Below, piece by piece: positions 10,701 through 63,760 of a stretch of DNA of 64,000 nt (position 1 is the first letter of the stretch; the number at the start of each line of letters is the position of its first letter). Under the pieces are notes generated by a model. It searched no databases. It worked only from the letters and a program-made list of their open reading frames with translations, and was not told the origin of the DNA. A program made the position numbers and the translations under genes. The DNA lies in assembly GCA_976551045.1 (NCBI GenBank), contig CDPCPM010000037.1, forward strand, positions 6,696,001-6,760,000. Reading direction: 5' to 3'. This DNA comes from Glaucostegus cemiculus. Its lineage: Eukaryota.

Positions 10701-10921
10701 TAATTGGGAAAATGGAATCTTTGGGGTTGTACTGAAACATATAGTCATTATAAACTACATTACACATGGATTCAGTTTTGGTTGACTCTCTTGGTGGCAC
10801 TAGATGGAGTAGGTTGCATCTTGGCACTGTTCCACTCACTTTTTAATTTTTTGTACACCACCCTCTAATAAGACTTTTATAATACTTTTATAAGATTGAT
10901 TTTGATTTTTAATTTCTCAAA

Positions 10922-22776: not shown

Positions 22777-23400
22777 AGCCAGGTGGTGCAGCAGTTAGTG
22801 CTGCTTCCTCACAGACTTGGAGACCTAGTCTTGATCCTGACCTCCAGTGATATCTGTGTGGAATTTGCATTGGTCTTTCTGAGACCTGTGCATTTCCTCT
22901 GGGTGCTCTGGTTTCCTCCCACATCCCAAAGATATGCTATTGGGTTAATTGGCTCCTGTAACTTTCAGTGTAGTTTAATGGAAAAAAATAAAGAGTTGAT
23001 GTGCATGTGAGAGAATAAATTAAAAGGGTACAGGGAAATAAAAAGAGGGGGATTAGCGTGGCGCGATAGCGTAGCGGTTAGCGCAACACTGTTACAGTGC
23101 CAGCGATCGGGGTTCGATTCCCGTCACTGATTGCAAGGAGTTTGTACGTTCTCCCATGTCTACGTGGGTTTCCTTCGGGTGCTCTGGTTTCCTCCCACAT
23201 TCTAAAAGACGTACGGGTAAATTAATTTGGGGGTTTAAAATGGGCATCGTGGACTAGTTGAGCTGAAAGAGCCTGTTACCACGCTGTAAATAAAACTTAA
23301 AATTAAAAAAAAAATAAAATTTAGAACTAATGAAATAGCTCCTTGGGAGCTGGTACGGACCGTATAGGCCAAATGGCCTCCTTTCTCTTGCACTGAAAAA
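22777..23400 (+). mobile_element. Older V-SINE interrupted by a young V-SINE
   Basis: Head GGTGGTGCAGCAGTTAG, V-domain TTTCCTCTGGGTGCTCTGGTTTCCTCCCACATCCC; tail ATAGGCCAAATGGCCTCCT resumes after about 23322. Confidence 0.75.
23057..23321 (+). mobile_element. Young V-SINE (CR1-type tail)
   Basis: A-box-like TGGCGCGATAGCGTAGCGG, B-box GGTTCGATTCC, V-domain, tail GCCTGTTACCACGCTGTAAATAAA plus A-rich end. Confidence 0.92.
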
Positions 23401-23566: not shown

Positions 23567-23813
23567 TTTAAATTTTTTTTTTAAACATGGTAACAGGCCC
23601 TTTCGGCCCTCCGAGTCCACGCTGCCCATTTTTAACCCCCAAAGTAGCCTACCCGTACGTCTTTCAGAATGTGGGAGGAAACCGGAGCACCCGGAGGAAA
23701 CCCACGCAGACACGGGAGAACGTACAAACTCCTTACAGTCAGCGACGGGAATCAAACACCGATCGCTGGCACTGTAGCAGCGTCGCGCTAACCGCTACGC
23801 TATCATGCCGCCC
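23567..23813 (-). mobile_element. Young V-SINE (CR1-type tail)
   Basis: Nearly complete reverse copy, CpG-rich; TSD TAAAAT at 23561-23566 and 23814-23819. Confidence 0.92.
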
Positions 23814-25775: not shown

Positions 25776-26966
25776 TTTCCAACATTGGTGGCTGAGAGGC
25801 TGTTTTTTTAATGAAGGCATTCTTGGAGTTGAAGTGATAAGGCAATGGTGAAATATTTCAGATTCATTCTACAATTAATTGCTTAGTTTAATAAATCACA
25901 GCCAAATTCTCATCAGTTTAGCAAGTCTTTTGTGCATAATTTTCTGTTATTAAATTTAAATATAACCAGAGCACTGTCTTGCTGTGGGAGTTATCTGTTT
26001 TTTGCTCCAGTTAATCAGTATTTTTATTGGGTTCAGGACTTTTTATGCAACAGGCTTGTGAATAGGCAGCAAGTCACCTCAGAAATTTATTAGAGATGTT
26101 GGAAATCAAGAACAAGTGAGTTACAGGCTTTATTTTGAAATTTCAATTCTCCTCACAAGACTCATTCTACATCCTTTGAAGGTTAAATCTACTATTCCAA
26201 GCTATTTGAAGAATGACTAAGATGTATTGATGTCTTATCACAGCATTGGTAAAAATTTAGAGGAAGCACTACACACACCAGGTATGGCTCACAATCATTA
26301 AGTGCAGAAATGTGATCATGTCAGCATTGTACAATTTTGAAATATGCATGTTACCTCCTTAAAAGATATAAATCTCCCCTGGAGTGCTATGCAGGTGTCT
26401 TTATTTTGATTTATTCTTGATAAATCTAATCTGAAATTCCCACTGTGTCATGTTACTTGGCTAAATGGTGACAAGTCATTGTGCAAAGATATTGAAACAT
26501 TATTTTACTTCACTTTATAACAAAGAATTAATACAAACACAGGGTGTGAACACAAAATGAAATGGTGCAAAGATCATCCAAAACAGACAGTCAAACACTG
26601 CTTCAGATTAACATAATACAGAAGGGATCTGTGGGTAGGACAAAAAACTGATTTGTAAAGTGTCAAGTTGTCACACTCTGCCCCTTGGTCCATGCTTACT
26701 ACAAGTGGGATTATCTAATGACCAAGTTTAAACCCGATGAGGTGACCCTCACTCCCATTTTGCATGTAGGAACCACAAAAGAATTTTTGACAGACAGCCA
26801 AGAAAGGGTCATTGACTTATCCAACTCAACTGTCGAAGATTATGTCCATTTCCGCATGTCCCTAGCATTCCAAAACACTCAAAAACATTCAGAAACTGAA
26901 AAATTTAAAGACTAGTAAAACATTTAAAATTAACTTTTAATGCAAATAAAATACAAAAATACAGAA

Positions 26967-27248
26967 AAGATAAGATAACTTTTTAGTCACATGTGCATCA
27001 AAACAGTGAAATGCATCTTTTGCGTAGAGTGTTCTGGAGGCAGCCCACAAGTGTCGCCATGTTTCCAGCACCAACATAGCATGCCCACAACTTCCTAATC
27101 TGTACGACTTTGGAATGTGGGAGGAAACCAGGGCACTCAAGAAACCCACACAGACACAGGAAGAATGTACAAACTCCTCACAGACAGCAGCTGGAATTGA
27201 ACCTGGGTCACTGGCGCTGATGCTAACCACTACACTGTCATGCCTGCC
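26967..27248 (-). mobile_element. V-SINE with Rex1/Babar-like tail
   Basis: AAGATAAGATA tail, TAGTCACATGT...CAGTGAAATGC, reverse V-domain and tRNA head; same subfamily as 7550-7834. Confidence 0.9.
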
Positions 27249-27309: not shown

Positions 27310-27523
27310 AGGCAGATGTTGGAATCTGGAGAAGCAAACAATCTGCTGGAGGAACTCAACTGGTCAAGCAGCATCTGTGGGGGAAAGGAACTGTCAATGT
27401 TTCGGGCATAAACCCTGCTTCAGGACATTGGGACTTCATACAGGTTCTCAACCCAAATCATGGACAATTTGTTTCCCCCTACAGATGCTACTCTATCTGC
27501 TGAGTTCCTCCAACAGATTGTTT
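27310..27523. mobile_element. Short fold-back element made of two inverted Penelope-like termini with hammerhead motifs
   Basis: Arms AAACAATCTGCTGGAGGAACTCA...GCAGCATCTGTGGGGGA and TCCCCCTACAGATGCT...TGAGTTCCTCCAACAGATTGTTT; arms match the end of the Penelope fragment at 51490-51550. Confidence 0.75.
27392..27427 (-). ncRNA. Hammerhead-ribozyme-like motif (variant core)
   Basis: Minus strand reads TGTC-CTGAAGC-AGGGTTTATGCCC-GAAAC-ATT-GACA: stem I and stem II pair; C at core position 9. Confidence 0.55.
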
Positions 27524-30749: not shown

Positions 30750-33700
30750 TACAGGAGTTTGCAATCAGTACAGGCCCTTCAGCCCACAATGTTGCACCAA
30801 ACTATATAAACCTTATCCCCATTCAATCTATCCTCCTCTCTATTTCACCTCCCATAACCCTCTAGCTTTTGTCCATGTGCCCATATAATAGTCTCTGAAA
30901 TGACCCTATCATATCAGCCCTTACCACCACCCCTAGCAGTGCATTCCAGGCACCCACCTCTGACATTCCCCTGAACCTTCCTCCACACACCTTAAACAGG
31001 TGACCTCTATTATTGGCCATTACCACCCTGGGGAAACATTTCTGGCTGCCACTGTCTATGACTCAATTTTATATACCTCTAGGAAGTCTTCTCCCATCTC
31101 CATCATTCCAAAAGAGAAAAGCCCCACTTGCTCAACCTCTTCTCATAAGAGATGCTCTCCAACTGAGGTAGCATCTTGGTAAATCTCCTCTGCACCCTCT
31201 CCAAAGTTTCCACATCCTTCCTATAATGTGGTGACCAGAACTGAACACAATATTCCAAGTGTGGTCTAAGTCTTATAGAGCTGCAAAATTACTCTTATAG
31301 AGCTGCAAAGTCTTGAACTCAATCCCCCAGTTAATGAAGGGCAGCACACCATATGCCTTCTTAACCACCACATCCACTTGTGCAGCAACTTTGAGGGGTC
31401 TATGTACTTGGATCCAAAGGTCTTTGTTCCTCCACACTGCTAAGAATCCTGCCATTAACCATGTACTCTGCCTTCAAGTTAGTTCTTCCAAAGTGTATCA
31501 ATTCACTTCCCCAGATTCATCTGCCACTTCTCTTCCAAGCTCTGCATCATCTAAATCCCATTGCAACCTATGACAACCTTCTTCACTGTCTACTACACCG
31601 ACCTTTGGGTCATCTGAAAATTTACCAACCTGTTCTTCCACTTACTCATCCGTATCATTTATAAATTGCAAAGAGCAGGGGTCCCAGAACAGTTCCCTGT
31701 GGAACACCACTAATCACTGAACTCCAGGTTGAATACTCCCCTCTGCAACCACCCTCCACCTTCTATGCACAAGCCAATTTCAAATACACAGAGTCAATTT
31801 TTCATGGATCCCATACCTCATGTTTTTTTGAATGAGCCTACTATGGGGAATCTGGTTAAACACCCTGCTAAAATCCATGTACACCACATCCACCACACTA
31901 CCTGCATCAATTTGCCTTGTCATTTCCTCAAAAAAAACTATTAAGCTCATGAGGCATGATCTGCCCTTCACAAAGCCATGTTGACCAGCCCTAATAAGAC
32001 AGTACTTCTCCAAATACTCATAAATCCAGTCCCCAAGAATCTTCTCCAGTATTTTGCCCACCACTGATGCAAAATTCACTGGTCTATAGTTCAAGATTAT
32101 CCCTTTTACCTTTCTTGAAAGAATGGAACAACATTTGCCATCCTCCAGTGCCACTCCTATGGCCAGGGAGTATTCAAAGATCATTGTTAATGCTCTAGCA
32201 GTCTCTTCCCTCACTTCCCATAGTAACCTAGGGTGTATCCTGTCCAACCCCAGGGATTTATCTATCTTAATGCTTTATAGTAGCTTCAACGCTGCTTCTT
32301 TCTTAACCTTGACATGCTCCAACACATTTGCCTGTTCCACACTAACCTCATTTGTCTAAGTCCCTCTCCTTGGTGAACACTCAAGCAAAATTCATTTAGG
32401 ATCTCCCCTCCCTCCTTCACCTCCAACCACATTTTCCTCCCTTATCCCTGAGTGGTCCCATCCTCACCTTGGTCATCCTCTTGTTCCTCACGTGTGTAGA
32501 ATGCCTTATGGTTTTTCTTAACCATACTTGCCAAGGTCTTCTCATATCCCTTTCTAGCTCTCTCAAGTCCCTTCCTGGCTATCTTATAACTCTCAAGAGC
32601 CCTATCTGATTTTTGCTTCCTAAACCTTAAATACACTTCCTTCTTCCTCTTGACTAAAGCTTCCACCTCTCTTGTTAACCATGGTTCCTTCACCCCACCA
32701 TCCTTTCCTTGTCTCAGTGGGACAAACCTACCTAGAACCCCTAGTATGTGGCCCCTAAACAACCTCCACATTTCTGTGGTGCGTTTACCACAGAACATCT
32801 GTTCCCAGTTTACTCTCCCAAAGTTAGTGCTTAATACCATTGTAATTTTCCCTCCCCCAATTAAATATTTTCCCGTACTATCTGCTCCTATGTTTGTCCA
32901 TGGCTATGCTAAAGGTCGGGGAATTGTGGTCAATATCCCTGAAATGGTCCCCACGGAGGGGCCTTTCACCTGACCAGGTTCATTGCCTAATATCAGATCC
33001 AGCATGGCCTCTCCTTTAGTTGGCCTGTCTACACAATGTCAGGAATCTTTCCTGTACTCACCTAACAAATTCTGCCCCATCTAAACCTTTTGCACTAAGG
33101 AGGTGCCAATCAATATGAGAGAAGTTGAAGACTCCCATGACTACAACCCTGTTATTTCTGCAGCTTTCCAAATTCTGCCTACTTATCTGCTCCTCAGTGG
33201 CCCTATAGAATACTCCCAGTTCAGTGATCACTCCCTTCTTTCTGACTTCCACCCACATCAACTCAATAGATGATCCTTCCTACAGCTGTGATTATCCTCG
33301 ATTAGCAATTCCAATCCCATCCCTTCTATCCCCCTCCTTATCCCTTTTGAAACATCCAAGCTCCAGAACCTTAGGCAACCATGCCTGTCCTTGTGACAGG
33401 AGAATCTCTGTAATGGCCACAACATTGTAATTCCATGCACTGATCCATGCTCTAAGTTCATCATCCTTATTCTTAACACTCCTCGCATTAAAGTAGACAC
33501 ATTTCAACCCTCCAACTGATTGCATTTATGCCCCATCCCCACCTATCCTTCCTCACCTTCTCCATACACACCACATCGACTTCTACACCAATTGATCCAT
33601 CTTCCAATCTAACATTCTGGTCCCCATCCCCCTGCCAACCTAGTTTAAACACTCCCCAACAGCTCTAGCAAACCTGCCTGCAAGGACATTGGTCCCTCTC

Positions 33701-34900
33701 CAGTTCATGTGTAACTTATCCCTTTTATACAGGTCATACCTACCCCAGGAAAGACTCCAATGATCCACACATCTGAACCCCTGCCCTGACTCTTCAGCCA
33801 CTCATTAGTCTGCCATATCTTCCTATTCATTCCCTCCCTGGTGCATGGCACATGCAGCAATCCAGAGATTGCTGACTTTGAGGTCTTGCTTTTTAGCTTC
33901 CTTCCTAACTCCCAATGCTCGTTCTGCAGGACCTCATCCCTTATCTTGCTCATGTCATTGGTGCCAATGTGCACCATGACTTGTGGCTCCTCCCCCTCAA
34001 ATGCTATACATTCGATCTGAGATATCCCTAACCCTGGCACCTGGGAGGCAACATACCATCCAGGAGTCTCATTCTTATCCACAGAATCTCCTGTCCATCC
34101 CCCACCCAATGAATACCTGATCACCATCACATTTCTCTTACCACCACCCAATTTCCCTTCTGAACCAGACTGTGCTAGAGACACAGCTGATGTGGCTCTA
34201 CCAGTGATTTATTCCCTCACTAAACCCCCCCTTCCCCACCAAAACAAACCATATAGTTGTTGTCCAGGGAAACGGTCACCAGGCTTTGAACGCAATCCCC
34301 CCAGCTAATGAAGGCCAGCACACCATACACCTTCTTAAACACCCTTTCCACATGCAGCAACTTTGAAAGATCCATATATTTGGACCCCAAGATCTGCCTA
34401 TTGTACTGACTGCCTATTCCTTTTCCTTACCCTAATGGTCACCCCACAACCTACGTCCCACATCCTTGATGTAACTGCCTACTGGTAATTCCTATCTATC
34501 ATCTCCAGAGCTTCCCGAATGATCCAGAATTCATTCAGCTGCAGCTCCAGCTTCCTAACATGGTCTGTAAAGTGCTGCAGCTGAACACTTCCTGCAGATG
34601 TAGTCCTCAGGGACACTGGAGATCTCCCCGATTTTCCACAATCTACAGGAGGAGCATACTTCTGCCCTGACTGCCATTCCCACTGGTCTAAAAAAGAAAA
34701 TTACAAATAATAGGAAGAACCCACCAGAAGCCTCAGCTCACCTACTTCACCTCCTCATCCTGAAGCCTCTTTAGCCAAAGCCTCAGCTCCCCACTCCAAC
34801 ACTGCCCACTCACAATAGCTGCTCCACTTGACCCCAAATTCTTTTATTTGGCAGCTGCTGCCTAATTATCCAATTTGCTAATCAACAGGCCTATCAACTC
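30750..34900 (-). mobile_element. Near full-length decayed CR1 LINE
   Basis: 5' UTR, ORF1 (CxxC...CRKC zinc finger near 34680-34570, esterase VHIGTND), ORF2 EN (YFNARS, AITE, GVFN) and RT (QHGFVKGRSCL, VDVVYMDF), 3' tail CAGGCCCTTCAGCCCAC. Confidence 0.92.
33620..34677 (-). pseudogene. CR1 ORF1p remnant (zinc finger plus SGNH esterase)
   Basis: MAVRAEVCSSC...PEDYICRKC; EGEEPQVMVHIGTNDM...ELGRKLKSKTSKSAISGLL. Confidence 0.8.
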
Positions 34901-35019
34901 ACCACAGCAACAAGAACAACAACAATGTACCTGTGGTTTCAAACTGCTTCACTCATTTTCTCACTGTACTTACCATGGCAATGAGACTCCCTGCTCCCAT
35001 ACTTGTACTAGTCACCATA

Positions 35020-35872
35020 GTAACAAGAACTACAGGGCTGTTTTTCATCAGTCAGTACTATTAAAGCAGATTATATCACAATCTCATTGCAATATCAGAA
35101 AACAAAAACTAGGATTGTATGTGCATCACATGACTCTTGAGTTTTCTCTGCCATCCAACAAGGTTATAACCAATCTTCTACCTCAAATCCACTTTCTAAC
35201 ATGACAAACTTGTCACTTGATTCTACTGAACTCCAAAAATCTATCACAATCAGTCTGGAATACAATAAGTACCTCCAGACCTCTGGGGAGAGAATTCCCA
35301 AAGATTCACACGCATAACTCCATATCTTCTAGTTCTATACCCTCCAGCCAAGAGAAACTACATCTCAGTAACCAATCTTTCAAACCTCTTCAGAAAGATT
35401 CACAATTCAATGAAATGACCTTTCTTTTCTATTCTTTTAAAGGCCTAATCTATCAAATTGGTAAACCTTCAATGTGATGCCTCCTAGTCAAGTATATCCT
35501 TCCATAAAGATCAAAAATTTTTACACCGTAACCGGAATACAGATTCCTCAAGGTGTTAAGCAATTATTGCAAGACTTTGTTCCTCTTGTATTCCAATCCC
35601 ACTTGTAGTAAAAAGACAAATGCCATGTGTTCCCAATTGCTTGTTAGCATCTGCATGATTGTTTTCTACAATTCCTGTTGAGAGTATCACAATCTGAAAG
35701 CCAACATCTAATAATTGATTACTATTTAAGTTGTGGGAGTTGCCATGTGCAATTTGGCTGCTGCATGATCAACATTACGAGTGTAACTGCCTTTCAAATG
35801 TATTTCATTGGCTGCCAAGCACTTTGGGACACACTGAGGTTTTGGAAAATGCAGCAGAAATCCAAGTTTTAA
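35020..35872 (+). mobile_element. Deu-domain SINE relic (SacSINE1/AmnSINE-like) split by an old CR1 fragment
   Basis: 5' part AAAGCAGATTAT...CTCATTGC near 35060-35090; 3' part TTGTGGGAG...GTGCAATTTGGCTGC...TTTCATTGGCTG...GCACTTTGGGAC at 35730-35870. Confidence 0.55.
35095..35680 (-). mobile_element. Old CR1 3' fragment
   Basis: CTCTGGGGAGAGAATTCCCAAAGATTCAC (reverse of VNLWNSLP) and flanking CR1-like sequence. Confidence 0.6.
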
Positions 35873-38271
35873 TTTTCTTTCAGCTACTTGACTACTCACT
35901 GATTCCCCAGCCAGAAGAAGTTGGCCTCGAGATTGATCGTGTCCAAAGCAAGTAAAACTAATGGAAGAAAATGTGAAAATAGGTAAGACTTGTACAAAAA
36001 GGTAAAAAGTAATTGAAGAACAGGAAATATGATAATATTATTTAATTTTAGCATGGATAAATATTTAATGGAAGCCTGAACTCTGTCGTAAATATGTAAA
36101 TTCTAATTATCCAGTTTCCATTTCCAGCAGTAGCAATGAAATGTGAACAACTGAACATTTTTATTCAGATTTCAGGTCACTGTATCCTGCAATATATTCT
36201 GAAATAAGATAAAACAAAACCAAGCAGAAGTTCAGAGCAATTCTTTCTAATGACTTCACATGAAGCAGAAAAAAACTCAAACATCTAACAGAACATGTAT
36301 ATGGAATCAGAGCACTACAGCACAGAAAGAGGCCCTGCAGCCCATCTCATCCATGCCAGCCTGCTTTTCTGCCTAGTCCCATCTACCTGCACCCAGACCA
36401 TAGCCCTCCATACCTCATTTATGCACCAATCCAAATTTCACTTAAATGTTACAACTGAACCCGCATCCACCGCTTCTGCTGGCAGCTCGTTCCACACTTG
36501 CACCACCCTGAGTGAAGTAGTTCCCCCCCCCCCCGAGATTCCCCTTACATATATCAGCTTTCACCCTAAACCTATGACCTCTAGTTCTAGTCTCACCCAG
36601 CCCAAGGGGAAAGCCTGCATGCATTCACCCTATCAACATGTCTCAGTTTTGTATACTTCAAGATCTCCCCTCATTCTCCTGTACTCCAGATAATAAAGTC
36701 CTGACCTATTCAACCTATCCCTGGAACTCAGGTCCTCAAGTCCTGAAAACATCCATGTAAATTTTCTTTGCACTCTTTCAAGCTTATTGATAGCTTTCCT
36801 GTAGGTGGGTGACCAGAACTGCACGCAATACTCTAAATTTGGCCTCTCCAATGTCTTATACAACCTTAACATAACATCCTAACTCTTGTACTCAATGCCC
36901 TGATTTATGAAGGCTAATGTGCCAAAAAGCTCTCTTTATCACCCTATCTACCGGCAATGACACTTAAGGCATTCTCCCAGCTCCCTTTGTTCTACTGCAC
37001 ACTCCTACCATTCACTGTGTAAGTCTTACCCCAGTATGTCCTCCCAAGGTGCAACACCTCACGTCTGCATTAAATTCCATCTGCCATTTTTCAGCCCATT
37101 TTCTCCGCTGGTCAGATCACACTGCAAGCTTTGATAGCCTTCCTCACTCTCCACTATGCCCCCAATCTTGATGTCATCTGCAAATTTGCTGATCCAGTTT
37201 ACCACATCTTCTAAATCATTGTTGTTTATCATCCACATTAATGGGCCCAGCACCAATCCCTGTGGCACACCACTAGTCACAGGCCTCCAGAGAGACATCC
37301 ATCTACCACTCCTCTCTGGCTTCTCCTGCTAAGCCAATGTTGAATCCAATTGACTACTTCATCCTGAATGCCAAGTGGCTTAACCTTCTGGACCAGCCTC
37401 CCATTTGACTTTGTCAAAGGCCTTGCTAAAGTCCATGTAGACAACATCCACCACCTTCCCTTCATTAACCTTCCTGGTAACCTCAATCTATTAGATTGGT
37501 TAGACATAACCTACCACACACAAAGCCATGTTGACTATCCCTAATCAGGCACTGTCTATTCAAATAGATAGATGTCCTGTCCCTCAGAATACCTTCCAAT
37601 AATTTACCGATAACTGATGTTGGGCTCACCAGCCTACAATTTCCTCATCTTGGTATTAGAGCCTTTCTTAAACAACAGAACATTAGCTATCCTCCAGCCC
37701 TCTGGAACCTCACCCATGGCCAAGGATGTTATAATACCTCTGCCAGGGCCCCTGCAATTTCTGCACTAGCCTCCCACAAGGTCCAAGGGAACACCTCATC
37801 AGACCCTGGGGATTTATCCACCCTAATTTGCATCAAGACAGCAAGTACCTCCTTTTCTGTAATCCAGATACAGTCCATGATCTCACTATTCTTTTTTCCT
37901 CAGTTATAGAATCTATGTCTGTCTCCTGAGTAAACACAGATGCAAAAAAAAAAAAATCATTTAAAAATCTGCCTCATTTCTTTTGGCTCCATGCATAGAT
38001 GACCACTGTGATCTTCAAGAGGAAGAATTTTATCCCTTGCTATCCATTTGCTCTTAATATAGCTATAGAAGCCCTTTGGATTCTCTTTCACCTCATCTGC
38101 CAGAGCAACCTCATGCCCTCTTTTAGCCCTCCTGATTTCTCTCTTCAGTGTTCTCTTGCACTTCTTATACTCCACAAGTGTCTCATTTATCCGAATGGCC
38201 TATCCTTTCTCTTTACCAGGGCCTCAATAACCAAGGTTCCCTAGACCTATTAGCCTTGCCTTTTATCCTTT

Positions 38272-38368
38272 TTAGGAAGGGGTTAGATGGACTTGGGTAT
38301 GGTTGAAAGGTCAGTACAACATAGTAGGCTGAAGGGCCTGTGTTGTGCTGTATTGTTCCATGATTCTA
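38272..38368 (+). mobile_element. Short CR1 3' tail nested in antisense within the second CR1
   Basis: TAGGCTGAAGGGCCTGTGTTGTGCTGTATTGTTCCATGATTCTA interrupts the minus-strand ORF2. Confidence 0.75.
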
Positions 38369-39259
38369 ACAGGAACATACAGATTCTGTCCTCTTAATAT
38401 TTAACTTCTGAAGGCCTCCCACTCACCAAGCATCTCTTTGCCAAAAACAAACTATCCCAATCCATGCCTGCCAGATCCCTTCTGAAGCCATCAAATTTGG
38501 CCTTCCTCCAGTTTAGAATCTTAACCCGAGGACTCGTCTTATCCTTTTCCATAATTATCTTGAAACTAATGGAATTATGGTCACTAGATCCAAAGTGTTC
38601 CCCTACACTCACTTCTGTCACCTGCCCTGTCTCATTCCCCAAGAGGAGATACAGTATCACATTCTCTCACATTGATTAAGGAAACTTCCCTGAACACATT
38701 TGACAAACTCGATCCCATCCAGTTCTTTTACAATATGGAAGTCTCAGTCAATATATGGAAAGTTAAAATCACTTACTATCTCAACTTCATATTTCCTGCA
38801 ACTGTCTAAAAATTTGCTCCTTTAAATCATGCTGACTATTGGGAGGTCTATAATACAGTCCTATTAACATGGTCATCTTTTTTTATTCCTTAGTTCCACC
38901 CAAATTGCTTCGGTAGTCAAACCCTGCAGTATGTCCTCGCTGCACACTGCTGTGACATTTTCCCTGATGAGTAATGCCACCCCTCTCCCTTTAATACCTC
39001 CCCCTCTATCATGTCTAAAACATCAGAACCCCAGAACATTGAGCTGCCAGTCCCACCCCTCCTGCAACCAAGTCTCACTAATGGCTACAACATCATAATT
39101 CCACATACAGATCTAAGTTCATCTGCCTTACCTACAATACTCCTTGCATTGAAATAGACAACTCAGAACGTTAGTCCCACCATGCTCAACCTTTCAGTTT
39201 CCATCATTGCTTGTAGTCTTGACATCTACTTTCCCCACAGCTATTCCACTTGCTATCCT

Positions 39260-40188
39260 GCCACTCTAGTTCCCACCCCCCACAGCCCTAGATTAAACCA
39301 CCCCCTCCCCCAAGCAGAACTAGCAAATCTTCCCACAAGGATATCCATCCCCTTCCAGTTCAGGTCCAAACCATCCTGTTTGTACAAATGGCCTGGAAGA
39401 GAGCCCAATGATCCAAAAATCTGAAGCTCTCCCTTCTGTACCATCTCCTTAGCCACATGTTCAACTGCACTATCTTCCTATTTCTTACCTCACTAGCATA
39501 TGACACTGGTAGCAATCCTGAGATCACCACCATGGAGGTCCTGTCTTTTAACTTAGCACCTAACTCCCTGAAGTCACTTTGCAGGACCTCAGTTATCTTG
39601 CCTATCTCATTGGCACCAATATGTACCACAACCTCTGGCTGCTCACATAAGAAAGCTATGGACTCAATCCAAGACATCACCAACTCTGACACCTTGGATG
39701 CAACATACAGTCAGAGTCTTGTTCTCAGCCACAGAACCTCCTGTCTGCTTCCCCAACTAATGGATCCCCTATCACTACCACATACCTCTTCTCCCCCTTC
39801 CCCTCTAAAGGGAAAGAGCCAGATTCAGTCCCCAAGACCAGACCACTGTGGCTTTCCCCTGGTAGGTCATCTCCCCCAAAAGTATCTAAAACAATATACT
39901 AGTAAGAGGTGAACAGCCACAGGAGTACTTTGTACTGACTGCCTATTCCCTTTGTCTCTCCTGACAGTCACCCAGCTACCTGCCTCCTTCAAATTAGGTA
40001 TGACTGTCCCCCATAACTACTCTGCCACACAAATGATCCAAAGATCATCCAGCTCCAGTTCCTTGGCACAGTCTGTAAGGAACTGTAGACTGATTAACTT
40101 CTCACAGATGTAGTCATCAGGGACACTGGAGGTCTCCTCGACTTCCCACATCATGCAAGAGGAGCACACCACTGCACTGGGTGTCATG
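39260..40188 (-). pseudogene. CR1 ORF1p remnant (zinc finger plus SGNH esterase)
   Basis: EQPEVVVHIGANEIG...VVISGLLPV...LNMWLRRW...FRFLDHW; LYKQDGLDLN (cf. DGLHLN). Confidence 0.85.
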
Positions 40189-40889
40189 TCCACTGCTCTA
40201 CCTGTGCAATAATAAAGAGAACTTAGCAGAACCTCACCTTAGCATCCATCTCTTCACACCAAAGCCTAACCTCCTCACTCTTACACTGACCTACTCCAAA
40301 ATGGCCACTCCACTTTACCCTACCTGTCTTTTATTGGCCACACACCTAGCCAATCAGAAACAACTTAAAAAATAAAAACTGCTGGCTCTTCCCTTCTGCT
40401 GCTCTGGCTGCTGGAACTGCAAAAAAACAAGTCCCAGCTGAAAAACAACTTTAAAAGAAAATCTATCAAGTTATTTCCTATGCTTGTGATAAAGTGGTTT
40501 CAAAAGTGTCTTTCAGAAAATGATTATTCAACAAAATGCAGCAAATTCAAATCATATCTTGTCTTGAGTTCAGAAAGTAGATACAGATGAAAAGACACCA
40601 AAAGTTATCAGTAACTTGCAAAAGCAAATTCACTTTCACATTACTGTTGCAGAATAATTATAACATATAACTTAATATATTGCCCTCATATCACTGGAAC
40701 TAGATGCTCAGTGTGGTAGCATTGAACTCAGTGGAACTGAATTGTGGAAGCAGAGTACAATGAACTACTTTGTAGCATGTTAGGCATCAATGATAGAGGA
40801 TAACTTTCTCCCACACCCATATACAAACATATTTATTGCATCCAGACATGCATTATGTATGTTATAATAGATTTCATCATTGGCAGTTA

Positions 40890-41130
40890 ATCTATCAACC
40901 AAATGCCTTCATCAGCAACTTGTCACCATGGCAACCCCATCTCAGCCTTCAGACATATTCACTTTGTCCTTTTCATGCCTCCCTCACTTCTGGATCTTAA
41001 GACAAACTTAACTTCTGTCTTTCCCAATTCTAAGGAAGGACCTATGACCTAAAACATTAACTCTGTTTCTCTTTGCACAGATGCTGCCTGACCTGCTGAG
41101 AGTTTCCAGCATTTTGTGTTTTTGTCTGAG
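40890..41130 (+). mobile_element. Old Penelope-like 3' terminus with decayed hammerhead relic
   Basis: TTCTAAGGAAGGACCTATGACCTAAAACATTAACT followed by CAGATGCTGCCTGACCTGCTGAG...CCAGCATTTTGTG. Confidence 0.65.
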
Positions 41131-43879: not shown

Positions 43880-44700
43880 TCTGTGTTTACTCCATTAAAG
43901 CATTCCATGATTTTAAAGTATTCTTATGTTTAATCCTTGGCCTTTTCAAGAGAAAAAAGGCCTACACATCCTTTCCTTTGTAGATCTTCAGAAACATTTC
44001 ATGTACACTATCAGTGCCTTTAATTCCTCTTAACAGTAACCCTCCAGGAAATAGGCAGTGTCTGCTTTTCAGTTCTTGTAGTTTTGACCTGCATTATTGC
44101 TTTATCTCTTTTGTGTGGTGTGAGACTACTTTGATGCTCCATCCTGTTCAATTTTTTAATTCTCAAGCAGTGTGAACTTCTTATATTTCTTCTCAGATGT
44201 CATGTTTCATGCTTTGCTGCATTTGAAGTTCATTTGCCAAATATATATCCATTCTTCAAATTTATTTTTGTCCTCCTGCAATTTATTGCAGCCAATTTGT
44301 TGTCATCTAGACTTTTGGAAATCATGATTCCAAACTCTAATCATTATTACAAGTTCTGAATAATGGTCACATTAGTGATTCTTGTTATTTTTGAGAATGT
44401 TAATTCCCATCCTTTCAACCCTGAATTTTGTATTTATTTTTGTATTTGTTGCTCCAGATTCCACCCTCTGAAGTTTCTGGTGTCTCTCACTTTTATTCCC
44501 CCTTCTACTTTCAATGTGGACACCAGTAAGCTATCTTTCTTCTCACTTCCTGACCCCACATTCTCTTGCTTAATTCATTCATCTATTATGTGGTCCTATA
44601 CTGAAGGCCTTTTTTAAACAGAAGTCTACATTAATCATAAATACTGTATACCCCAGATCTTCAAAGAATTCAGTGTTATTGATGAAGTACTATTTCTGGC
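43880..44700 (-). mobile_element. Ancient CR1 RT fragment
   Basis: Decayed reverse motifs equivalent to WQMNFN, FADDT (TTGTCATCT) and DFKKAFDKVPH (ATGTGGTCC...GAAGGCCTT...AAGTCTA). Confidence 0.5.
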
Positions 44701-48260: not shown

Positions 48261-49379
48261 GAATGTAATAGAGTATATGATGATTGTGACCTACGTGGAC
48301 AGGAAGAGTTCATGCCAACAGTAGTTTACAACAGAAACTCTTTTTACTCAGATACTTAAAAGCTCCAAACTATGGGCTTTACCAGGTCAGTGTGAAGTGC
48401 ACAAACACACATTAGAATATAAATAAAACGTTGCTAAACACATGAACAAGTCAAGACTAATTCATTTTTAATTTCCTTCAATTTAGCAGGCACAATCCAA
48501 GTTAAGAAGATGCTTGCATTTGAAGCATCAATTGTTCTGAGCATAGATTGCATGTTTTATCTTTGTCAGATTGTGTCCATTTAGCACGGAAGGACACGCA
48601 GCATAAAAACAATTATTTTCTACTTAATATTATGCTTCTGTTTTATTCACATTATTTGCTAAAGGGTAATTGCTTCCTTTTCTCTTTAGGGGCTAAAGGT
48701 GGAGCCATGTATCACTTCAGATCAAAACATATCTCCCTCAATGCACATTGACCTTTCACAGCTCAGACAGCACACACATTCTTTTTATTACCCTCAAGGA
48801 TACTATCTTTCTAATGTATAGCAGAGAGATTCTCAGGAAAATTACTTTCAAGTGGAATTTCAATTTCTGAACTCACTTTTTGAAGCTTTAAGAATGAAGA
48901 TTGTATTCAATATTATTTAAAGGACACATGCATAACATTCATCCTCCATCAATAACGCTACACATACTATAGATTAGCCTCAGAAAGTTGTACTCAATCC
49001 CTAAAATTTATTCCATTAACCTCATTGTAAAGTATACTAAATTACTTGAACAATACAGAATGCCATTCTTGTTCATCATGAAACTTATCTCAGATGACAA
49101 ATGGTCATTTATTATCAAAGCGGAGATAAATTTAAATTGAGTGAATAATCAGAGGGGGTAACCGCTTCTTCCAGCATTTTTATAAGTCAGAGCACTAATG
49201 TGAAGCAACATTCTGTATATCAGTCGGAACATACCATTTAGAAGACCATGTAAGAGCCAGTCCCCATGATGGCAGAAGTTATTTCTTACAGGGAGAAAAA
49301 ATTCCATTTATATGTTATTCAGGAAATGACATAGAATAAATCGTTAATCACACTAACATATTCATGAATAAAGAGAGAT

Positions 49380-49580
49380 ACAAGAGACTGCAAAAGCTGG
49401 AATCTGGAGCAACAAACAAATCATTGGAGGAATTCAGTGGGTTGATCAGCATTTGTTGGGGGAAAGGGATTGTCGATGTTTCAGGTCCTGATACAGGGTT
49501 TTGACTTGAAGTGTCAACAATTCCTTATCTCCCATAGATGCTGCTTAACCTACTGAGTTCCTCCAGTAGATTGTTTGTTA
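49380..49580. mobile_element. Fold-back element of inverted Penelope-like termini (same family as 27310-27523)
   Basis: AACAAACAAATCATTGGAGGAATTCAG... versus ...CTGAGTTCCTCCAGTAGATTGTTTGTT; central hammerhead relic GTCCTGATACAGGGTTTTGACTTGAAGTGTC. Confidence 0.72.
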
Positions 49581-50059
49581 TTCAAGCAATAACTTGTAAC
49601 CTCCAATTGTTTTCCTTTAAGTCACTCTTCAGCCTAACTTATCAATGGCACGTTGAATATAAATTAATGCATGGGTAAACATTTGCAGCAGAAGCACAGT
49701 GGTTCACTGAAAGTAAGGAATTGTTTAAACTTCATTCAATAATTTATTTCAGTATTGAAATCAATTTAATTTAGATCTTTCTGAAGTTACCCACATAATT
49801 TAAACTTTGAACTCGAGGGTGGAAATTGTGCCGGGGTTTTACTCTACTTAATCTTCTAACAACAATACATGAGAAACCAGAAGGGGCCTTCCAGACATTG
49901 GTAAACTGATTCCCTATTTTCACCCATCAAATGCTAGCTAAATTGTCCCAAAGGCACTATGTTTTCGCCCTAGAAAAAGCATACAATGCTCAGACAATAA
50001 GAGTTAACAATTCTCCAGGATCCTCCTGATTATTTCAGGAATTAAGGTATTTATTAAGG

Positions 50060-50346
50060 TATTTATTTATTAGTCACATGTACAGTACATCGAAACACAC
50101 ACTGAAATGTATCTTTTTTTGCTTTACTGAGAATATGTTGGGGGCAGCCCACAAGTGTCTCCTCTCTTCCAGTGCCAACATATCATGCCCATAGCTCCTA
50201 ACTTGTACGCCTTTGGAACGTGGGAGGAAACCAGAGCACCCAGAGGAAACCCATGCAGACATGAGGAGAACATACCAGCTCCTTACAGACATTAGCAGAA
50301 TTGAACCCGGGTTGCTGGCACTGTAATAGCATTACGCGAACTGCTA
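50060..50346 (-). mobile_element. V-SINE with Rex1/Babar-like tail
   Basis: TTTATTAGTCACATGTAC...ATCGAAACACAC..TGAAATG tail, reverse V-domain, GAATTGAACCCGGG. Confidence 0.9.
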
Positions 50347-50591: not shown

Positions 50592-51032
50592 TCAAGTTCA
50601 ACTTCAAGTTTATTGTCATGGGCATACATACACAGTATAAATGCCATGAAAATCAGCTTTTTCTTTTTGCAGCAGCAGCACAGTACATTGCAAACATGAA
50701 CAACGTAAGATAACATAAACTTAAATTAACATAAATTATACATAACTTACATGACAAAATAAACATAACAATACCAGTGCTACTTGAGAGAGAGAGAGAA
50801 AAGAAGAAATATAGTCCAAGGTGGTGTTGGGGATTTTCAGGTCAGTTCAAGAACCTGATGGCAGTTGGGAAGAAGCTGTTGTTGAACCTTGAGGTGTGGA
50901 TCGTCAAGCTTCTGTACCTCCTGCCTAATGGTAACATTGAGAAGAGGGCACAGCCTAGATGATGGGGGTCCCTGAGGATGGATGCCACCTTCCTGAGACA
51001 TCACTTGTAGTAGATGTCCTTGATGGCGGGGA
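50592..51032 (-). mobile_element. Rex1/Babar 3' fragment
   Basis: TCAAGTTCAACTTCAAGTTTATTGTCA tail; GGGAAGAAGCTGTTGTTGAACCT (reverse of RFNNSFFP). Confidence 0.85.
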
Positions 51033-51556
51033 GAGCACCTTTGTTCCATCAGCCGCAACAGCCAGGACTTCCTGGTGGTCAGCCACTTCAATTCCACTTC
51101 CCAATCCACACTAACAATCCACACTATCCACAGACTCCTCTGCTGCCACTTTGCGGCCAGATACAATTTGGAGGAGCAGCATCTCATATTCCGTCTTGGT
51201 AGTCTCCAACCCGACAGCATCAACATCAATTTCTCTAACTTCTCGTAACCACTCCCCTTCCCCTTTTTTACCTCTCCCTTTGTCTTCCCTCATTCCTGTG
51301 GCCCCCTCACCCCTTCTCTTTCCTCTTGTCTGCCCTCATGACCTGCCCATCACCCACCTACCTTCCTCCTCTCACCTGGACTCACCTGTCACCTGCCAGT
51401 TTGTACTCCTCTCCCGCCCCTTACCTTTTTATTCTGGCTTCTACCATCTACCCTTTCAGTCCTGATGAAGGGTGTCAACTGGAAACGTTGGCTGTTTATT
51501 TCCCTCCATAGATGTTGCCTGACCTATTGTGTTGCTCCAGCATTTTGTGTGTGTTG
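51033..51556 (+). mobile_element. Penelope-like element 3' fragment (GIY-YIG endonuclease C-terminus plus terminal repeat)
   Basis: EHLCSI...VVSHFNS...LEEQHLIFRLGSLQPDSININFSNFS-stop (51248), pyrimidine-rich UTR, then hammerhead motif and ATAGATGTTGCCTGACC...CCAGCATTTTGTG end. Confidence 0.88.
51457..51494 (+). ncRNA. Minimal type I hammerhead ribozyme motif (partly decayed)
   Basis: CAGTC-CTGATGA-AGGGTGTCAACTG-GAAAC-GTT-GGCTG: intact core, stem I CAGTC/GGCTG, palindromic AACGTT at stem III, weakened stem II. Confidence 0.7.
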
Positions 51557-53853: not shown

Positions 53854-54150
53854 TCAGGTGGCTTCTGTCTATACCAGAAGGGAATAATGTATCTGTTGCA
53901 TTTCCAGCTAGCATTGAGGTGTACATCACTTCCACAGCTGACAGAAAGCTTTACTGGCTCTGTGTAAGATTCTGTGAAAGATTGGATTTGGAGTCTTCCT
54001 ATGTTCTTCAACATTTTTTTATATTCTGTCATGCAAGCCAGATAATGCACTGTGAGAAACAAAGGACTGCAGATGCTGGAATTTAGATGAAAAACACAAT
54101 GATGCTGGAGGAACTCAGCAGGCCAGGCAGCATCTGTGGAGAAAAGCAGG

Positions 54151-54188
54151 CGGTCAATGTTTTCGGTCAGGACACTTCTTCAGGACTG
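54151..54188 (-). ncRNA. Hammerhead ribozyme motif (decayed)
   Basis: Minus strand reads CAGTC-CTGAAGA-AGTGTCCTGACC-GAAAAC-ATT-GACCG. Confidence 0.6.
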
Positions 54189-54213
54189 AAGATAGGAAAG
54201 GGGGAAGCCCAAT

Positions 54214-54802
54214 ATTGGTATTGGTATATTATTATCACTTGTACCGAGGTACAGTGAAAAGCTTGTCTTACAAACTAATCATACAGGTCAATTCATTACA
54301 CAGTGCAGTTACATTGAGTTGGTATAAAGTGCATTGATGTGGTACAGGTAAAAACAGTAACGGTAAAGTGTCACAGCTACAGAGAAAGTGCAGTGCAATA
54401 AGGTGCAAGGTCACAACAAGGTAGATTGTGAGGTCATAGTCCATCTCATTGTCCAAGGGAACCGTTCAATAGTCTTATCACAGTGGGGTAGAAGCTGTCC
54501 TTAAGTCTGGTGGTATGTGCCCTCAGGCACCTGTATCTTCTACCCAATGGAAGAGGAGAAAAGAGAGAATGTCCCGGGTGGGTGGGGGTCTTTGATTATG
54601 CTGGCTGCTACTCCAAGACAATGAGAGGTAAAGACAGAGTCCAAGGAAGGGAGGCTGGTGTCCATAATGCGCTGGGCTGTGTCCACAACCCTATGCAGCT
54701 TCTTGCAGTCCTGGGAAGAGCAATTGCCATACCAAGCTGTGATACATCCAGATAAGATGCTTTCTATGATGCATCGGTAAAAGTTGGTGAGAGTCAAAGG
54801 GG
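54214..54802 (-). mobile_element. Rex1/Babar 3' fragment
   Basis: LTNFYRCIIESILSGCITAWYGNCS...KKLHRVV..AQRI...IIKDPHPPG; (TTGGTA)n tail. Confidence 0.92.
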
Positions 54803-54880
54803 AGGGAAAAGCAGAGCAGTGATAGGTGGATAAGAAAGGGGAGGCGGGGTGGACACAAGGTGATGATAGGTAGATGTAAT

Positions 54881-54977
54881 ATGTTTGTATGTGTGTTTGT
54901 ATGTTTGTGTGTGGGTGTGTTTTTGTGTATGTGTGTTTGTGTTTTGTGTGCATGTGCTCATGTGTATGTGTGCACAC

Positions 54978-55010
<33 letters not shown>
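54881..55010. repeat. Imperfect (TG)n microsatellite
   Basis: Visible TG/TTTG/TATG run. Confidence 0.95.
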
Positions 55011-55875
55011 TAGTTATCTGAGATATTATCCAAATCTTCACAGTTAGCACTTGGTCTGTCACAGCACCCATAAGAAGACAAATAATTCAAGGAAAAAGCT
55101 GGAAATTACAGAAGAGAATAACAAATGAGCTTCATCAGCTGGTACAAGCAACTGCCTAGCAAGCTGTTGGTTTGGTAATATGTGAACATTTATCAGAGGT
55201 TAAGCTGTTATGTATTTGCACCTTGAGACCTAGTGATCTATTGTCTATATAGATAATAACCAATTTCAGACAGGACTGTAGTACAATTATTTCTCATTCC
55301 ATCTTTGACAACTGCTATTTTGTGGTTTTGGTCTTCTAGAAACACCGGACAAATTAATTACATTTCGAAAACAGAATTTGGAGTATGTTTCTGCCTTTTG
55401 ATCTTTTCCCCCAGCTTTCTCTCAAGGGTCACCCTCCACCCAGCAGTTCCCTGGCCAACAGGAAAGCACAATATTATTCCACACCTTCTTTTAGCTGAAG
55501 GAAACTATTTCCACTGCTGTTACACAGGTTAAGTATGTCTGTGTACATGTGGCAAATGCATACATAATTTGTAATCATAATATAGACACATATGATTTTT
55601 ACTCATGCAGTTGGGTGCAAATAAGATATAAAGAGATATTTTACTATTCACTGCTATCTCTTTTTCTCCCATTAAGGTTGTTTGGGGCCTGTCTACTTAA
55701 ATATTCACTGTGTCTTCATGGTCCACATTACTAAAGTCCCTCATCTGCTTTAAGTCTCTATGTATGTTCTCCAATAACTGATGGCATCATGAAATTGTAT
55801 TGCCCAGAATGTTTCATGAAGGCTATCAATGCATTGGAGAAGATACAGAGACTTAAAACAGATGAGGGAATTTAG

Positions 55876-56645
55876 TAGAGTCATAGACTCATACAGCACA
55901 GAAACAGGCCCTTCAGCCCAACTCTTCCATGCGGCCAAGATTCCCATCTAAGCTAGTCCCATTTGCCTATATTTGGCCCATATCCCTCTAAACCTTTCCA
56001 ATCCAAGTATCTGTCCAAGTTCCTTTAAAATTGTTGTTAATGTACCTGCCTCAACCACTTCCTCTGGCAGCTCATTCCATATACTGACAACCCTCTGGGT
56101 GAAAAGGTTTCCCCTCAGGTTCCTACCAAATCTCTCCCCTAAACCTATGTCCTCTAGTTCATGATTTTTCAATGCTGGGAAAAAGACAGTGCACTTTCAC
56201 CCTACTTATACCCCTCATGATTTTATATACCTCTATAATATCACCCCTAATTCTCCTACACTCCAATGAATAAAGTCCCGACCTGCTCAACCTCTTTCCA
56301 TAATTCAGTACGGGCAACATCCTCATAAATCTCCTCTGTACTCCTTCCACCTTAATGGTATCTTTCCTAATGGCTGACCAAAACTGAACACAATATTCCA
56401 AATGCGTCCTCACCAATGTCTTGTACAACCACAAACATAACATCCCAACTTCTATACTCAGTGCCCTGGCTGAAGAAGGTCAACATGCCAAAAGCCTTCT
56501 TCACCACCCCATCTCCCTGCAATGTCACTTTCAGGGAACCACATACTTATACTCCTTGGTTCCTTTGATCTACAATACTCACCAGGGCCCTACTGTTCAT
56601 TGTGAAAGTCCTACCTTCATCTGTCTTCCCAAAATGTAACACAGT
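55876..56645 (-). mobile_element. CR1 3' fragment
   Basis: LYKTLVRTHLEYCVQFWS, RRIRGDIIEVYKIMRG, FTQRVVSIWNELPEEVVEAG; tail AGAGTCATAGACTCATACAGCAC. Confidence 0.93.
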
Positions 56646-57139
56646 GATGTAGACTGCAAAGACTCAGTGAATATTTAAGTAGATATGCCCCACTGTTGGG
56701 GGGGGGGAGCGGGGAAAAGGAGGTACTGGTGAACATATCTCTTTATATCTCATCTCCACCCAATTGCACATGATTACAAACCATGTATGTATGTATTATG
56801 ATTACATATTATGTATGTAGTTCTCGTATGTACACAAACATTTTCAACATGTGTAAGAGCAGTGGAAATGAGGCAGAATCAATGGGTTGTAAATGACTTC
56901 CTTGCCTTTGCATTTACGTATTTAATTACGGCACTTGCTTTTTCAGTAGCCTTTTTAACTAGATCTACCGACATCACAGTCCTAATTCCTACTGCTCTTG
57001 GAGCTCTCTAGAAATAGCACTACTTAGATTGTACTGTTTCGCCATGTTTTCTCTCCAAGGTTCATCTCATCAGATTTACCTGCGTTAAATTGTCTCTGCC
57101 ATGTCCCTGCTGATCCATCTTCATTGATGACCTTCTTTC

Positions 57140-60047: not shown

Positions 60048-60143
60048 TTATCATTATTACATATGTTACTTTTATAGTTTTTACTTCCTGGCCCCCAACT
60101 GTTCAGGATTACAATATTTGTAAAATAGGATTTAATCATTGTA

Positions 60144-60248
60144 AAAAGATGTACGGATAGGTTAATTTGGGGGGTTAAAATGGGCGGCGTGGACTCATTG
60201 GGCCGAAAGGGCCTGTTACCACGCTGTAAATAAAATTTAAAAAAAAAT
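60144..60248 (+). mobile_element. 5'-truncated young V-SINE (3' tail only)
   Basis: GGGCCGAAAGGGCCTGTTACCACGCTGTAAATAAA plus A tail; TSD TTGTA at 60139-60143 and 60249-60253. Confidence 0.85.
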
Positions 60249-60895
60249 TTGTACTCTGTCCCACTTATTCACTGGGAAAATTACATTCATTTGTCAAATA
60301 TGTAGCTGAGCAAGTTTATTAATGGTGTAGTTCCTCCAGTTTAAACAGTTGTTGCATTCATCTCTAAAATTCTTAATTTCAATTCAATTCTTCTCATTGA
60401 TACTCACCAAAGGTCAGAAGTAAAGTAAGATCTGGGAGCATCAGAACTAATGTCCAGGTATCTAATTCAGTTGCACAATACTACCTTCAATTTGACATCT
60501 GTCCTAATGCACCTGATCGCAAGGAATTGGGAACAGTTACGGGAAAGAAAATGAAAACTTTGCCATTCCTCAAGCACCATTGTCTCTGAGTGAAATAAAT
60601 ATAGTGGAGGTTCTCAGCAATGCTTGCTTTGGCAACTGAGTAATGTTTATTGATATGAGGAAGTTCTTTCAAGGAATTTATGAATTAAGTGTGTAGCTTA
60701 TTAATAGATCATTATATCCTGGTCCATCAGCAAATGTAGCCAACCATGGTTCTTGAAAGAGATTGTAATTACTGTATATGCGGAAACCTGAAGAAGCCTC
60801 CGGTGAGTGAGAAAATCCATTTTTTTTTATCAGCTTTTAATGCTTTTAATGGTTAAGATGGCAAAGTGGGTTGGATGCTCATTTTGCCTGTTTTT

Positions 60896-61000: not shown

Positions 61001-61149
61001 AAAGAAACAAACAATGAGAGACACAAAGACAGAAATACGCTAAAAACATTGAAACCACAAAATTAAATAGCACAATTTAAATAAATAATCTTAAATTGAG
61101 CGTACTGGCAACGGACAAAACCAATTTCTCCAAATGAAAATATTAAAAA

Positions 61150-61318
61150 AAGTAGATGCTTGAAATCTAAAATAAAAACAAAAACTGCTGAAAATAATCA
61201 GCAGGTCAGGCAAGTGTCTGTGAACAGAGAGATAAGAGTTAATGTTTCAGGCTGAAGACCTTTCGTCAGACCCAGATGCTGCCTGAGCTGCTGAATATTC
61301 CAGCATTTTCTGTTATCA
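61150..61318. mobile_element. Fold-back element of Penelope-like termini with hammerhead core
   Basis: AAAACTGCTGAAAATAATCAGCAGGTCAGGCA versus TGCCTGAGCTGCTGAATATTCCAGCATTTT; minus strand 61236-61272 reads CTGACGA-AAGGTCTTCAGCCT-GAAAC-ATT-AACT. Confidence 0.72.
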
Positions 61319-63679: not shown

Positions 63680-63760
63680 TGAAATAAAAACAGAAAATGC
63701 TGAAAATTTTCAGCACATCAGGTAACTTCTTATAATGTTTCATGTTACTGACATGTCGTT
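63680..63760 (-). mobile_element. Short Penelope-like terminal relic
   Basis: GAAATAAAAACAGAAAATGCTGAAAATTTTCAGCACATCAGG resembles 61170-61210. Confidence 0.5.

Follow-up and report, generated by a model that had tools for sequence, protein, structure and literature searches.

The element end at 51 kb in the analysed window, by which we mean the whole 64,000-nt stretch of DNA, raises the question of whether a hammerhead ribozyme is preserved in a mobile element here and whether it could still act. Our analysis indicates that this locus is very probably the 5'-truncated 3' end of an endonuclease-bearing Penelope-like element (PLE), with a terminal repeat that carries a minimal type I hammerhead motif, and that, like its relatives in the window, it is likely to be an old, inactive insertion.

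A truncated PLE end at 51 kb

The focal locus consists of the following parts.

51030..51248, plus strand: 3' end of the PLE ORF, the C-terminal 71-72 codons of the GIY-YIG endonuclease, assigned by homology; stop codon at 51246-51248
51249..51456, plus strand: pyrimidine-rich 3' untranslated part of the pseudo-LTR (81% C+T over 51246-51461)
51457-51494, plus strand: minimal type I hammerhead remnant; stem I formed by 51457-51461 with 51490-51494; G12 at 51482; ACGU at 51485-51488
51495..51514, plus strand: pyrimidine linker ending in TAG at 51511, then ATG at 51512-51514; candidate splice acceptor and candidate ORF start
51515..51556, plus strand: conserved 3' end of the pseudo-LTR, without the tail extension in this copy

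Translation of 51033-51245 gave 71 residues before the stop. This fragment has 11 homologues among longer proteins, the best named of which is Mobula hypostoma LOC134353856 (59% identity, E 1e-13), and it aligns to the extreme C-terminus of its relatives, with both His of the CCHH motif kept. LOC134353856 itself matches GIY-YIG below threshold; PF00078 is found in most of its 63 longer relatives and PF01541 also in many, and a wider protein search returned 750 relatives at E<=1e-30. Pfam analysis of the 71-residue fragment alone gave no GIY-YIG hit, and a sub-threshold Vanin_C match was rejected. The GIY-YIG C-terminus that had been placed upstream of the motif in the first-pass annotation was thus confirmed by homology and not by a direct Pfam hit.

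A CX2-5CxxC linker is a mark of Neptune and Nematis (PMC8557442), and a linker of this type precedes the endonuclease in 58 of the 65 homologues of at least 300 aa (lenient regular expression), as well as in the closest named homologue. The focal copy is 5'-truncated and lacks the GIY-YIG motif, the Cys linker and the reverse transcriptase; with the linker region missing, its clade is assigned via homologues only. Its 5' end adjoins an unrelated LINE fragment on the minus strand, which we take to be of the Rex1/Babar type. No target-site duplication above the null was detected for the focal copy. When the window was searched with 221 homologues, there was no PLE protein match besides the focal one and no reverse transcriptase. 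No full-length element was present in the window, nor a tandem copy with direct pseudo-LTRs, which is not expected among short truncated copies. The CpG observed/expected ratio of the window is 0.18, a vertebrate-like depletion; taken with the single named Mobula hit, it points to a shark or ray as the likely host. Expansion of PLEs has been reported for the whale shark (10.1101/443036).

A hammerhead core with a mismatched stem II closing pair

When anchored by hand with C3 at 51462, the plus strand of 51457-51494 matches the minimal type I hammerhead core at 12 of 12 single-stranded positions (CUGA.GA, GAAA, U16.1 and a non-G at 17). Stem I is 5 bp long, within the 3-5 bp of helix I in minimal PLE hammerheads, and all five positions are paired, one of them as G-U. 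The cleavage triplet is GUU, with the cut predicted after 51489. An extra base (A) lies between position 9 and 10.1, the palindromic 15.2-16.2 is CG, and ACGU stands where helix III would be. These features fit the consensus CUGANGAH..GAAAN-palindrome-NUH given in Fig. S3 of PMC4209133. In stem II, 3 of 4 positions are paired, one as a wobble: G·G at 10.1-11.1 is followed by G-U, G-C and U-A. Because the conserved closing pair of helix II, G10.1-C11.1, is replaced by G·G, the focal copy is likely dead, and we classed it as a decayed derivative rather than a working member.

The first-pass annotation had described this sequence correctly as regards stem I with its one G-U, the core and the NUH triplet (GUU). 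Its statement that the core is intact holds for the 12 single-stranded positions but is too strong in view of the G·G in stem II. It had also proposed that a palindrome, AACGTT, replaces stem III; helix III is limited to the central ACGU of this word, since its first A and last T belong to the core, as positions 14 and 17. Of the two kinds of scan that it had proposed, a strict minimal-hammerhead descriptor applied to both strands of the window gave one match, the focal motif, versus none in 30 dinucleotide-model nulls, whereas an Rfam covariance-model scan yielded 7 hits at E<=5 with no hammerhead among them. A descriptor match at 708 (minus strand) was dropped as chance.

Related arms in the window

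Profile searches detected 10 arms, in one search at E<=6e-4 (best E in a reversed-window decoy, 1.2) and in another at E<=3e-5 (seven of the ten belonged to the training set). Together with a tail-only fragment at 44.4 kb, these make up 11 related arms in 8 insertions, which by their approximate boundaries cover ~1,521 bp (2.4% of the window). Six profile matches with E 0.02 or worse were dropped as chance, as was the single 27-nt match obtained when prokaryotic genomes were scanned for extra copies. The insertions other than the focal one are listed below.

27312..27523, both strands: head-to-head inverted PLE ends with weak target-site-duplication-like flanks
Minus arm of the 27312..27523 locus: C3 at 27423; core 11/12; C at position 9; tail
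Plus arm of the 27312..27523 locus: C3 at 27435; core 5/12; no tail
41022..41125, plus strand: single PLE end with hammerhead remnant; C3 at 41030; core 10/12; no tail; 61 kb subfamily
44440..44498, plus strand: tail-only fragment; 27/49 kb subfamily
49374..49581, both strands: head-to-head inverted pair with 13-14 nt target-site-duplication-like flanks
Plus arm of 49374..49581: C3 at 49488; core 9/12
Minus arm of 49374..49581: starts inside stem II; tail
54055..54212, minus strand: PLE end with hammerhead remnant and tail; C3 at 54183; core 11/12; palindrome CA; adjoins the 3' end of an unrelated LINE fragment
61141..61316, both strands: head-to-head inverted pair, a minus arm with hammerhead remnant and a plus arm
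Minus arm of the 61141..61316 locus: C3 at 61269; core 12/12; A-U at 10.1-11.1; U-A at 2.1-1.1; palindrome CA; weakly scoring tail
Plus arm of the 61141..61316 locus: starts at AG-ATG; no tail
63684..63760, minus strand: degenerate, internally deleted PLE end; 41/61 kb subfamily

Judged by diagnostic bases, these sequences may fall into three groups (51/54 kb, 27/49/44 kb and 41/61/63 kb), which are only loosely separated at pairwise identities of 57-76%. The hammerhead could be aligned in seven arms (51, 54, 27 minus, 27 plus, 49, 61 and 41 kb), in which the core matches at 12, 11, 11, 5, 9, 12 and 10 of 12 positions; it is complete in two. None of the seven keeps the core, the stem II closing pair and the palindrome together, and we therefore regard the arms in the window as remnants of ribozyme-bearing source elements, not as working ribozymes.

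The first-pass annotation had listed five further sites besides the focal one. All are real homologues at about the positions it gave, but decayed, with cores of 9-12 of 12 and no CG palindrome. Its figure of at least six motifs is lower than the number of arms that we found, and as a count of motifs it is overstated, none of the alignable arms being complete. The multi-subfamily, high-copy system that it had inferred is borne out in its several subfamilies and in the density of insertions, while its genome copy number rests on this one window. That the locus is a PLE end and that its motif derives from a minimal type I hammerhead is likewise supported, the association itself having already been published (PMC4209133).

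Position 9 is C, where A is expected, in all three alignable arms of the 27/49 kb group (27417-27423, minus strand; 27435-27441 and 49488-49494, plus strand), with an A next to helix II. This C may reflect a source element that was already dead, or else a variant of the core in which the extra base precedes A9. The base after position 9 is A in all seven alignable arms, with an ambiguous register in the 41 kb arm. Elsewhere in the window, a 135-bp unit at 9077-9321 is present in 1.8 tandem copies and contains words like the first half of the hammerhead core, with no GAAA; the hammerhead-like words at 9143 and 9279 were dropped for lack of GAAA.

Anatomy of the insertions

Head-to-head inverted ends with a tail on one end are a signature of PLEs, as described in PMC8557442 and PMC3846280. 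Inverted ends were found at three of the 8 loci (27, 49 and 61 kb), the focal one not among them, and in all three the tail is on one arm only. The tail, an extension of ~30 nt, is present in 5 of the 11 arms and missing from the focal copy; that at 61 kb is weak (score 10, reached by 31 of 2000 nulls). Among the inverted loci, the target-site duplication is clear at 49 kb (score 9, 0 of 200 nulls), weak at 27 kb (28 of 200 nulls) and absent at 61 kb. Identity between the two arms of an inverted pair is 69-72%, so the inverted insertions are old, provided that their arms began identical.

The two 3' ends, with and without tail, match the two reverse-transcription starts reported for the anole element (PMC11167929). 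Sequence from both sides of the cut position is present in nine of the 11 arms, and no arm starts there, so the RNA that was copied was uncut or had been re-joined. No two same-strand copies in tandem occur within the window.

It is possible, if doubtful, that the short ends and inverted pairs represent non-autonomous SINE-like or retrozyme-like families with source genes of their own, mobilised in trans by PLEs, at least one of which (27/49 kb) would have been ribozyme-less before it spread. Seven of the 8 insertions are indeed non-coding and ~220 nt or shorter, and the 5' ends of several lie only a few bases from the 5' edge of the hammerhead; however, 5' truncation is already the rule for PLEs (PMC8557442), and the inversion junctions differ among all three inverted loci, which fits formation at each insertion. 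The C at position 9 shared by the three 27/49 kb arms, where the metazoan rows of PMC4209133 Fig. S3 have A, would suit such families, and PLE-derived non-autonomous hammerhead repeats have been reported in vertebrates, including one chondrichthyan (bioRxiv 10.64898/2026.07.22.740005), but none of the 8 tandem arrays found in the window overlaps the PLE loci. This alternative overlaps with the preferred explanation, truncated ends of an endonuclease-bearing PLE, and is inapplicable to the focal copy, which keeps coding sequence.

Stem pairing, CpG decay and predicted activity

Over the first four pairs in the seven alignable arms (28 cells per stem), 21 cells were paired in stem I and 23 in stem II; slid controls gave 2-16 and 5-17, respectively, and the background was 38% in both cases. 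For this count the arms were anchored by hand: in the automatic alignment, the two arms whose stem II region is 14 nt long are misplaced, and RNAalifold run on that alignment missed the hammerhead fold, reporting no more than a small hairpin downstream and a competing stem on the 5' side. At 2.1-1.1, four arms have C-G, two (41 and 61 kb) have U-A, and in one the pair is broken. Pair 10.1-11.1 is G-C in two arms, G-U in one, A-U in two (41 and 61 kb) and G·G in two, where the change to A-U hinges on the register of the 41 kb arm and U11.1 could also be a product of CpG decay. U4, A6, A13, A14 and U16.1 are invariant in all seven arms, and identity to the majority base is 60/70 in the core versus 46/70 in the linker and 12/21 in loop II, the value for the core being inflated in that six of the seven arms were originally picked for their hammerhead likeness. 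With covariation limited to about two between-subfamily events, in seven hand-anchored arms within one window, and with most arms chosen by motif, the stem changes support but do not prove selection on structure. The dinucleotide at 15.2-16.2 is CG in the focal arm, CA in five arms and TG in one; CA and TG at this site are the products of CpG decay on either strand.

We consider it very improbable that the focal copy is a still active ribozyme that cuts host or element transcripts. It is the only copy to keep a 12/12 core together with a 5-bp stem I and ACGU, but one CpG kept among seven arms is within chance, the G·G lies at a pair that is highly conserved according to PMC4209133, and no same-strand tandem partner is present in the window. 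The predicted monomer fold, moreover, sequesters the focal core by pairing it with upstream sequence, leaving stems I and II at near-zero probability, as in six of the seven arms, the focal one included. Single-strand folding z-scores were not significant in any of 7 segments (best, -1.76). Intact minimal motifs are themselves reported to cleave poorly (PMC4209133), and 8 of 9 Xenopus dimers remained uncut (bioRxiv 10.64898/2026.07.22.740005).

In the predicted folds, an upstream flank that can form 6-8 bp with the core and the first part of stem II was seen at 51451-51472 (plus strand), 54176-54192 (minus strand) and 41017-41040 (plus strand). Such pairing would block the active fold, and may only mirror the pyrimidine-rich flank.

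That the hammerhead likeness is due to chance, in a repeat end conserved for protein binding, an ORF start or the like, is hardly credible, since the motif lies just 3' of a PLE endonuclease, agrees with the consensus of PMC4209133 down to the palindrome and the additional base that follows position 9, and has stems paired above slid controls with compensatory changes, even though the bare CTGANGA..GAAA pattern is only about twice as frequent as chance (12 matches versus 6.5 expected, with 12 reached in 4 of 100 shuffles; weak alone), relaxed descriptors discriminate poorly (4 versus 1.4 in the null, and 10 versus 5.5 at two mismatches) and the downstream 60 nt are also conserved.

A proposed course of events

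The endonuclease C-terminus, the pyrimidine-rich repeat, the hammerhead core, pairing above controls, inverted ends, one-sided tails and CpG decay are all present in the sequence. By analogy with published PLEs, the source elements would have been transcribed from tandem copies, and the element protein would have nicked DNA through its GIY-YIG domain. Reverse transcription may then have been primed internally, close to where the next ORF begins, at either of two sites separated by ~30 nt, so that some ends received the tail and others did not. Early termination would account for the predominance of end fragments of 100-220 nt, and priming on both strands for the head-to-head pairs.

In the source RNA, the motif may have cut weakly after GUU, two copies pairing through ACGU as helix III, probably with the help of protein. 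Published minimal motifs are inactive as monomers and weak as dimers (PMC4209133), and one of nine Xenopus dimers tested was cleaved (bioRxiv 10.64898/2026.07.22.740005). Cleavage of the anole motif needed protein and was dispensable for insertion in vitro, and no read ends were seen at its cut site (PMC11167929). After insertion, decay of methyl-CpG would have removed the palindromic CG from six of the seven arms.

A candidate intron end and ORF start after the ribozyme

A pyrimidine tract, a YAG and an ATG lie 21-23 nt after the cut, and for this reason the ribozyme may sit in a retained intron. On this candidate reading, which is rather unlikely, a spliceosomal intron would have been retained and its 3' end would contain the hammerhead, with the cut overlapping a branch-point-like word and the acceptor AG directly before the ATG of the ORF. 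The pyrimidine tract and YAG are found 21-23 nt after the cut in all seven alignable arms, and of the nine arms that cover the site, eight have the AG and eight the ATG. Pyrimidines make up 72-83% of the 18 nt that precede the YAG, compared with an average of 49% for the 3984 YAG sites of the window, 3.4% of which reach 78%. A yTnAy word, the branch-point consensus, spans the cut in four of seven arms, not including the focal one. Against an intron, the whole repeat is pyrimidine-rich, the AG-ATG can pair with the tail instead in two of four tailed arms, and no donor site was established.

The ATG is followed by ~13 codons in arms without the tail and ~22 in those with it, close to the 12 and 22 of the Adineta pseudo-LTR, and by this analogy it is a plausible candidate for the ORF start. 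Conservation after the ATG is equal among codon positions (53, 49 and 49 of 60), with no bias, and a search for proteins beginning with the peptide after the ATG gave no homologue. If the intron reading is true, cutting and splicing would be mutually exclusive, and one transcript would be sorted into spliced mRNA, uncut template and a 5'-OH RNA starting ~22 nt before the AUG. Beyond a Drosophila case, no literature on an intron or branch point overlapping a PLE hammerhead was found in a search that left most subscription papers outside.

Other features of the window

Between the 54 kb PLE end and a pyrimidine-rich minus-strand stretch of 80 nt lies a LINE fragment (54212-55009); the stretch adjoins a TG/CA microsatellite. 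This stretch is possibly a split-off upstream part of the 54 kb pseudo-LTR; it gives no significant alignment to the focal one.

The window also contains a decayed, near-full-length L1-type LINE (10913-15969, plus strand), with matches to ORF1, reverse transcriptase and a zinc-binding domain, and a cluster of decayed CR1-like LINE fragments (30800-40300, minus strand), which matches reverse transcriptase and a GDSL/OSK-like ORF1 and coincides with a strong negative GC skew. Copies of a SINE-like dispersed repeat of ~260 bp, 75-90% identical, occur at 7550-7830, 10330-10580, 21660-21870 and 23060-23300, and further copies at 23570-23800, 26960-27220, 50070-50340 and 60140-60250. A long inverted repeat at 55729-55877, with sub-threshold matches to microRNA precursors, is flanked by an inverted pair (55507-55732 and 56643-56869).

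Pfam analysis of 20 of the 41 long ORFs gave hits for 7, mostly to retrotransposon domains, and no host exon was identified among them. Overlapping open frames of 142 codons (plus strand) and 105 codons (minus strand) at 24482-24910 lie outside any repeat found and have no Pfam match; they may include a host exon.

Comparison with known systems

Minimal hammerheads in PLEs have been known since the work of Cervera and De la Pena in 2014 (PMC4209133). The arms described here share with these motifs CUGANGA with an extra base, GAAA, a two-base palindrome for helix III, NUH and a short helix I, as well as a position at the 3' end of 5'-truncated PLEs that are mostly single dispersed copies with occasional opposite-strand pairs. 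They differ in a helix II of 4-5 bp, in the absence of G10.1-C11.1 from the focal copy, in the A-U found at this pair in one subfamily and in the C at position 9 in another. No cartilaginous fish appears among the examined entries of Table S1 and Fig. S3 of that paper. In a search that left most subscription papers, Repbase and Dfam outside, we found no paper describing a PLE minimal hammerhead in cartilaginous fish, with the exception of a preprint that, using canonical and minimal models, detected both PLEs and tandem repeats with hammerheads in the single chondrichthyan genome it covers (bioRxiv 10.64898/2026.07.22.740005).

With our results, the known association of minimal hammerheads with PLEs also takes in a probable shark or ray, in which the remnants are dense, old and of several subfamilies. 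They also carry a warning that counts of hammerhead motifs in such genomes are largely counts of dead copies, since helix III depends on a CG that, as a CpG, is lost by decay once the element has inserted. According to PMC8557442, what PLE hammerheads do is still an open question; that the copied RNA was not cut at the ribozyme site is a small mechanistic message, in agreement with the in vitro work on the anole element (PMC11167929).

Endonuclease-bearing PLEs of the Neptune and Nematis type (PMC8557442; PMC3846280) likewise have a C-terminal GIY-YIG domain and the CX2-5CxxC linker found here in the closest homologues, and show 5' truncation, head-to-head inverted copies and a tail of 30-40 nt on one end. 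The linker and the reverse transcriptase are missing from the focal copy, so that the likeness rests on homologues, and Neptune and Nematis are not separated by it. The pseudo-LTR of Adineta Pen2a includes the first 12 codons of the ORF, or 22 with the tail (PMC3846280), compared with roughly 13 and 22 codons after the ATG in the arms studied here.

In the Poseidon element PAc of Anolis (Frangieh 2024, PMC11167929), the hammerhead also lies in the pseudo-LTR, two 3' ends define a tail and uncut RNA serves as template. PAc belongs to the Penelope/Poseidon clade, however, and has an ORF that begins within the ribozyme, at stem II, whereas the conserved ATG here is 21-23 nt past the cut. Non-LTR retrozymes (PMC7229834; bioRxiv 10.64898/2026.07.22.740005) resemble the short ends in being short, non-coding relatives of PLEs with a type I hammerhead, in one case from a chondrichthyan; they are arranged as head-to-tail tandems, unlike any of the 8 loci in the window.

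The 5'-UTR intron of Drosophila virilis Penelope (PMC2377424; PMC4209133) offers a precedent for a retained spliceosomal intron beside a pseudo-LTR hammerhead. That intron ends at the 5' end of helix I, whereas the candidate acceptor-like site described here lies 3' of the ribozyme. If this site is real, a splice-or-cleave model could be tested directly by elasmobranch RNA-seq.
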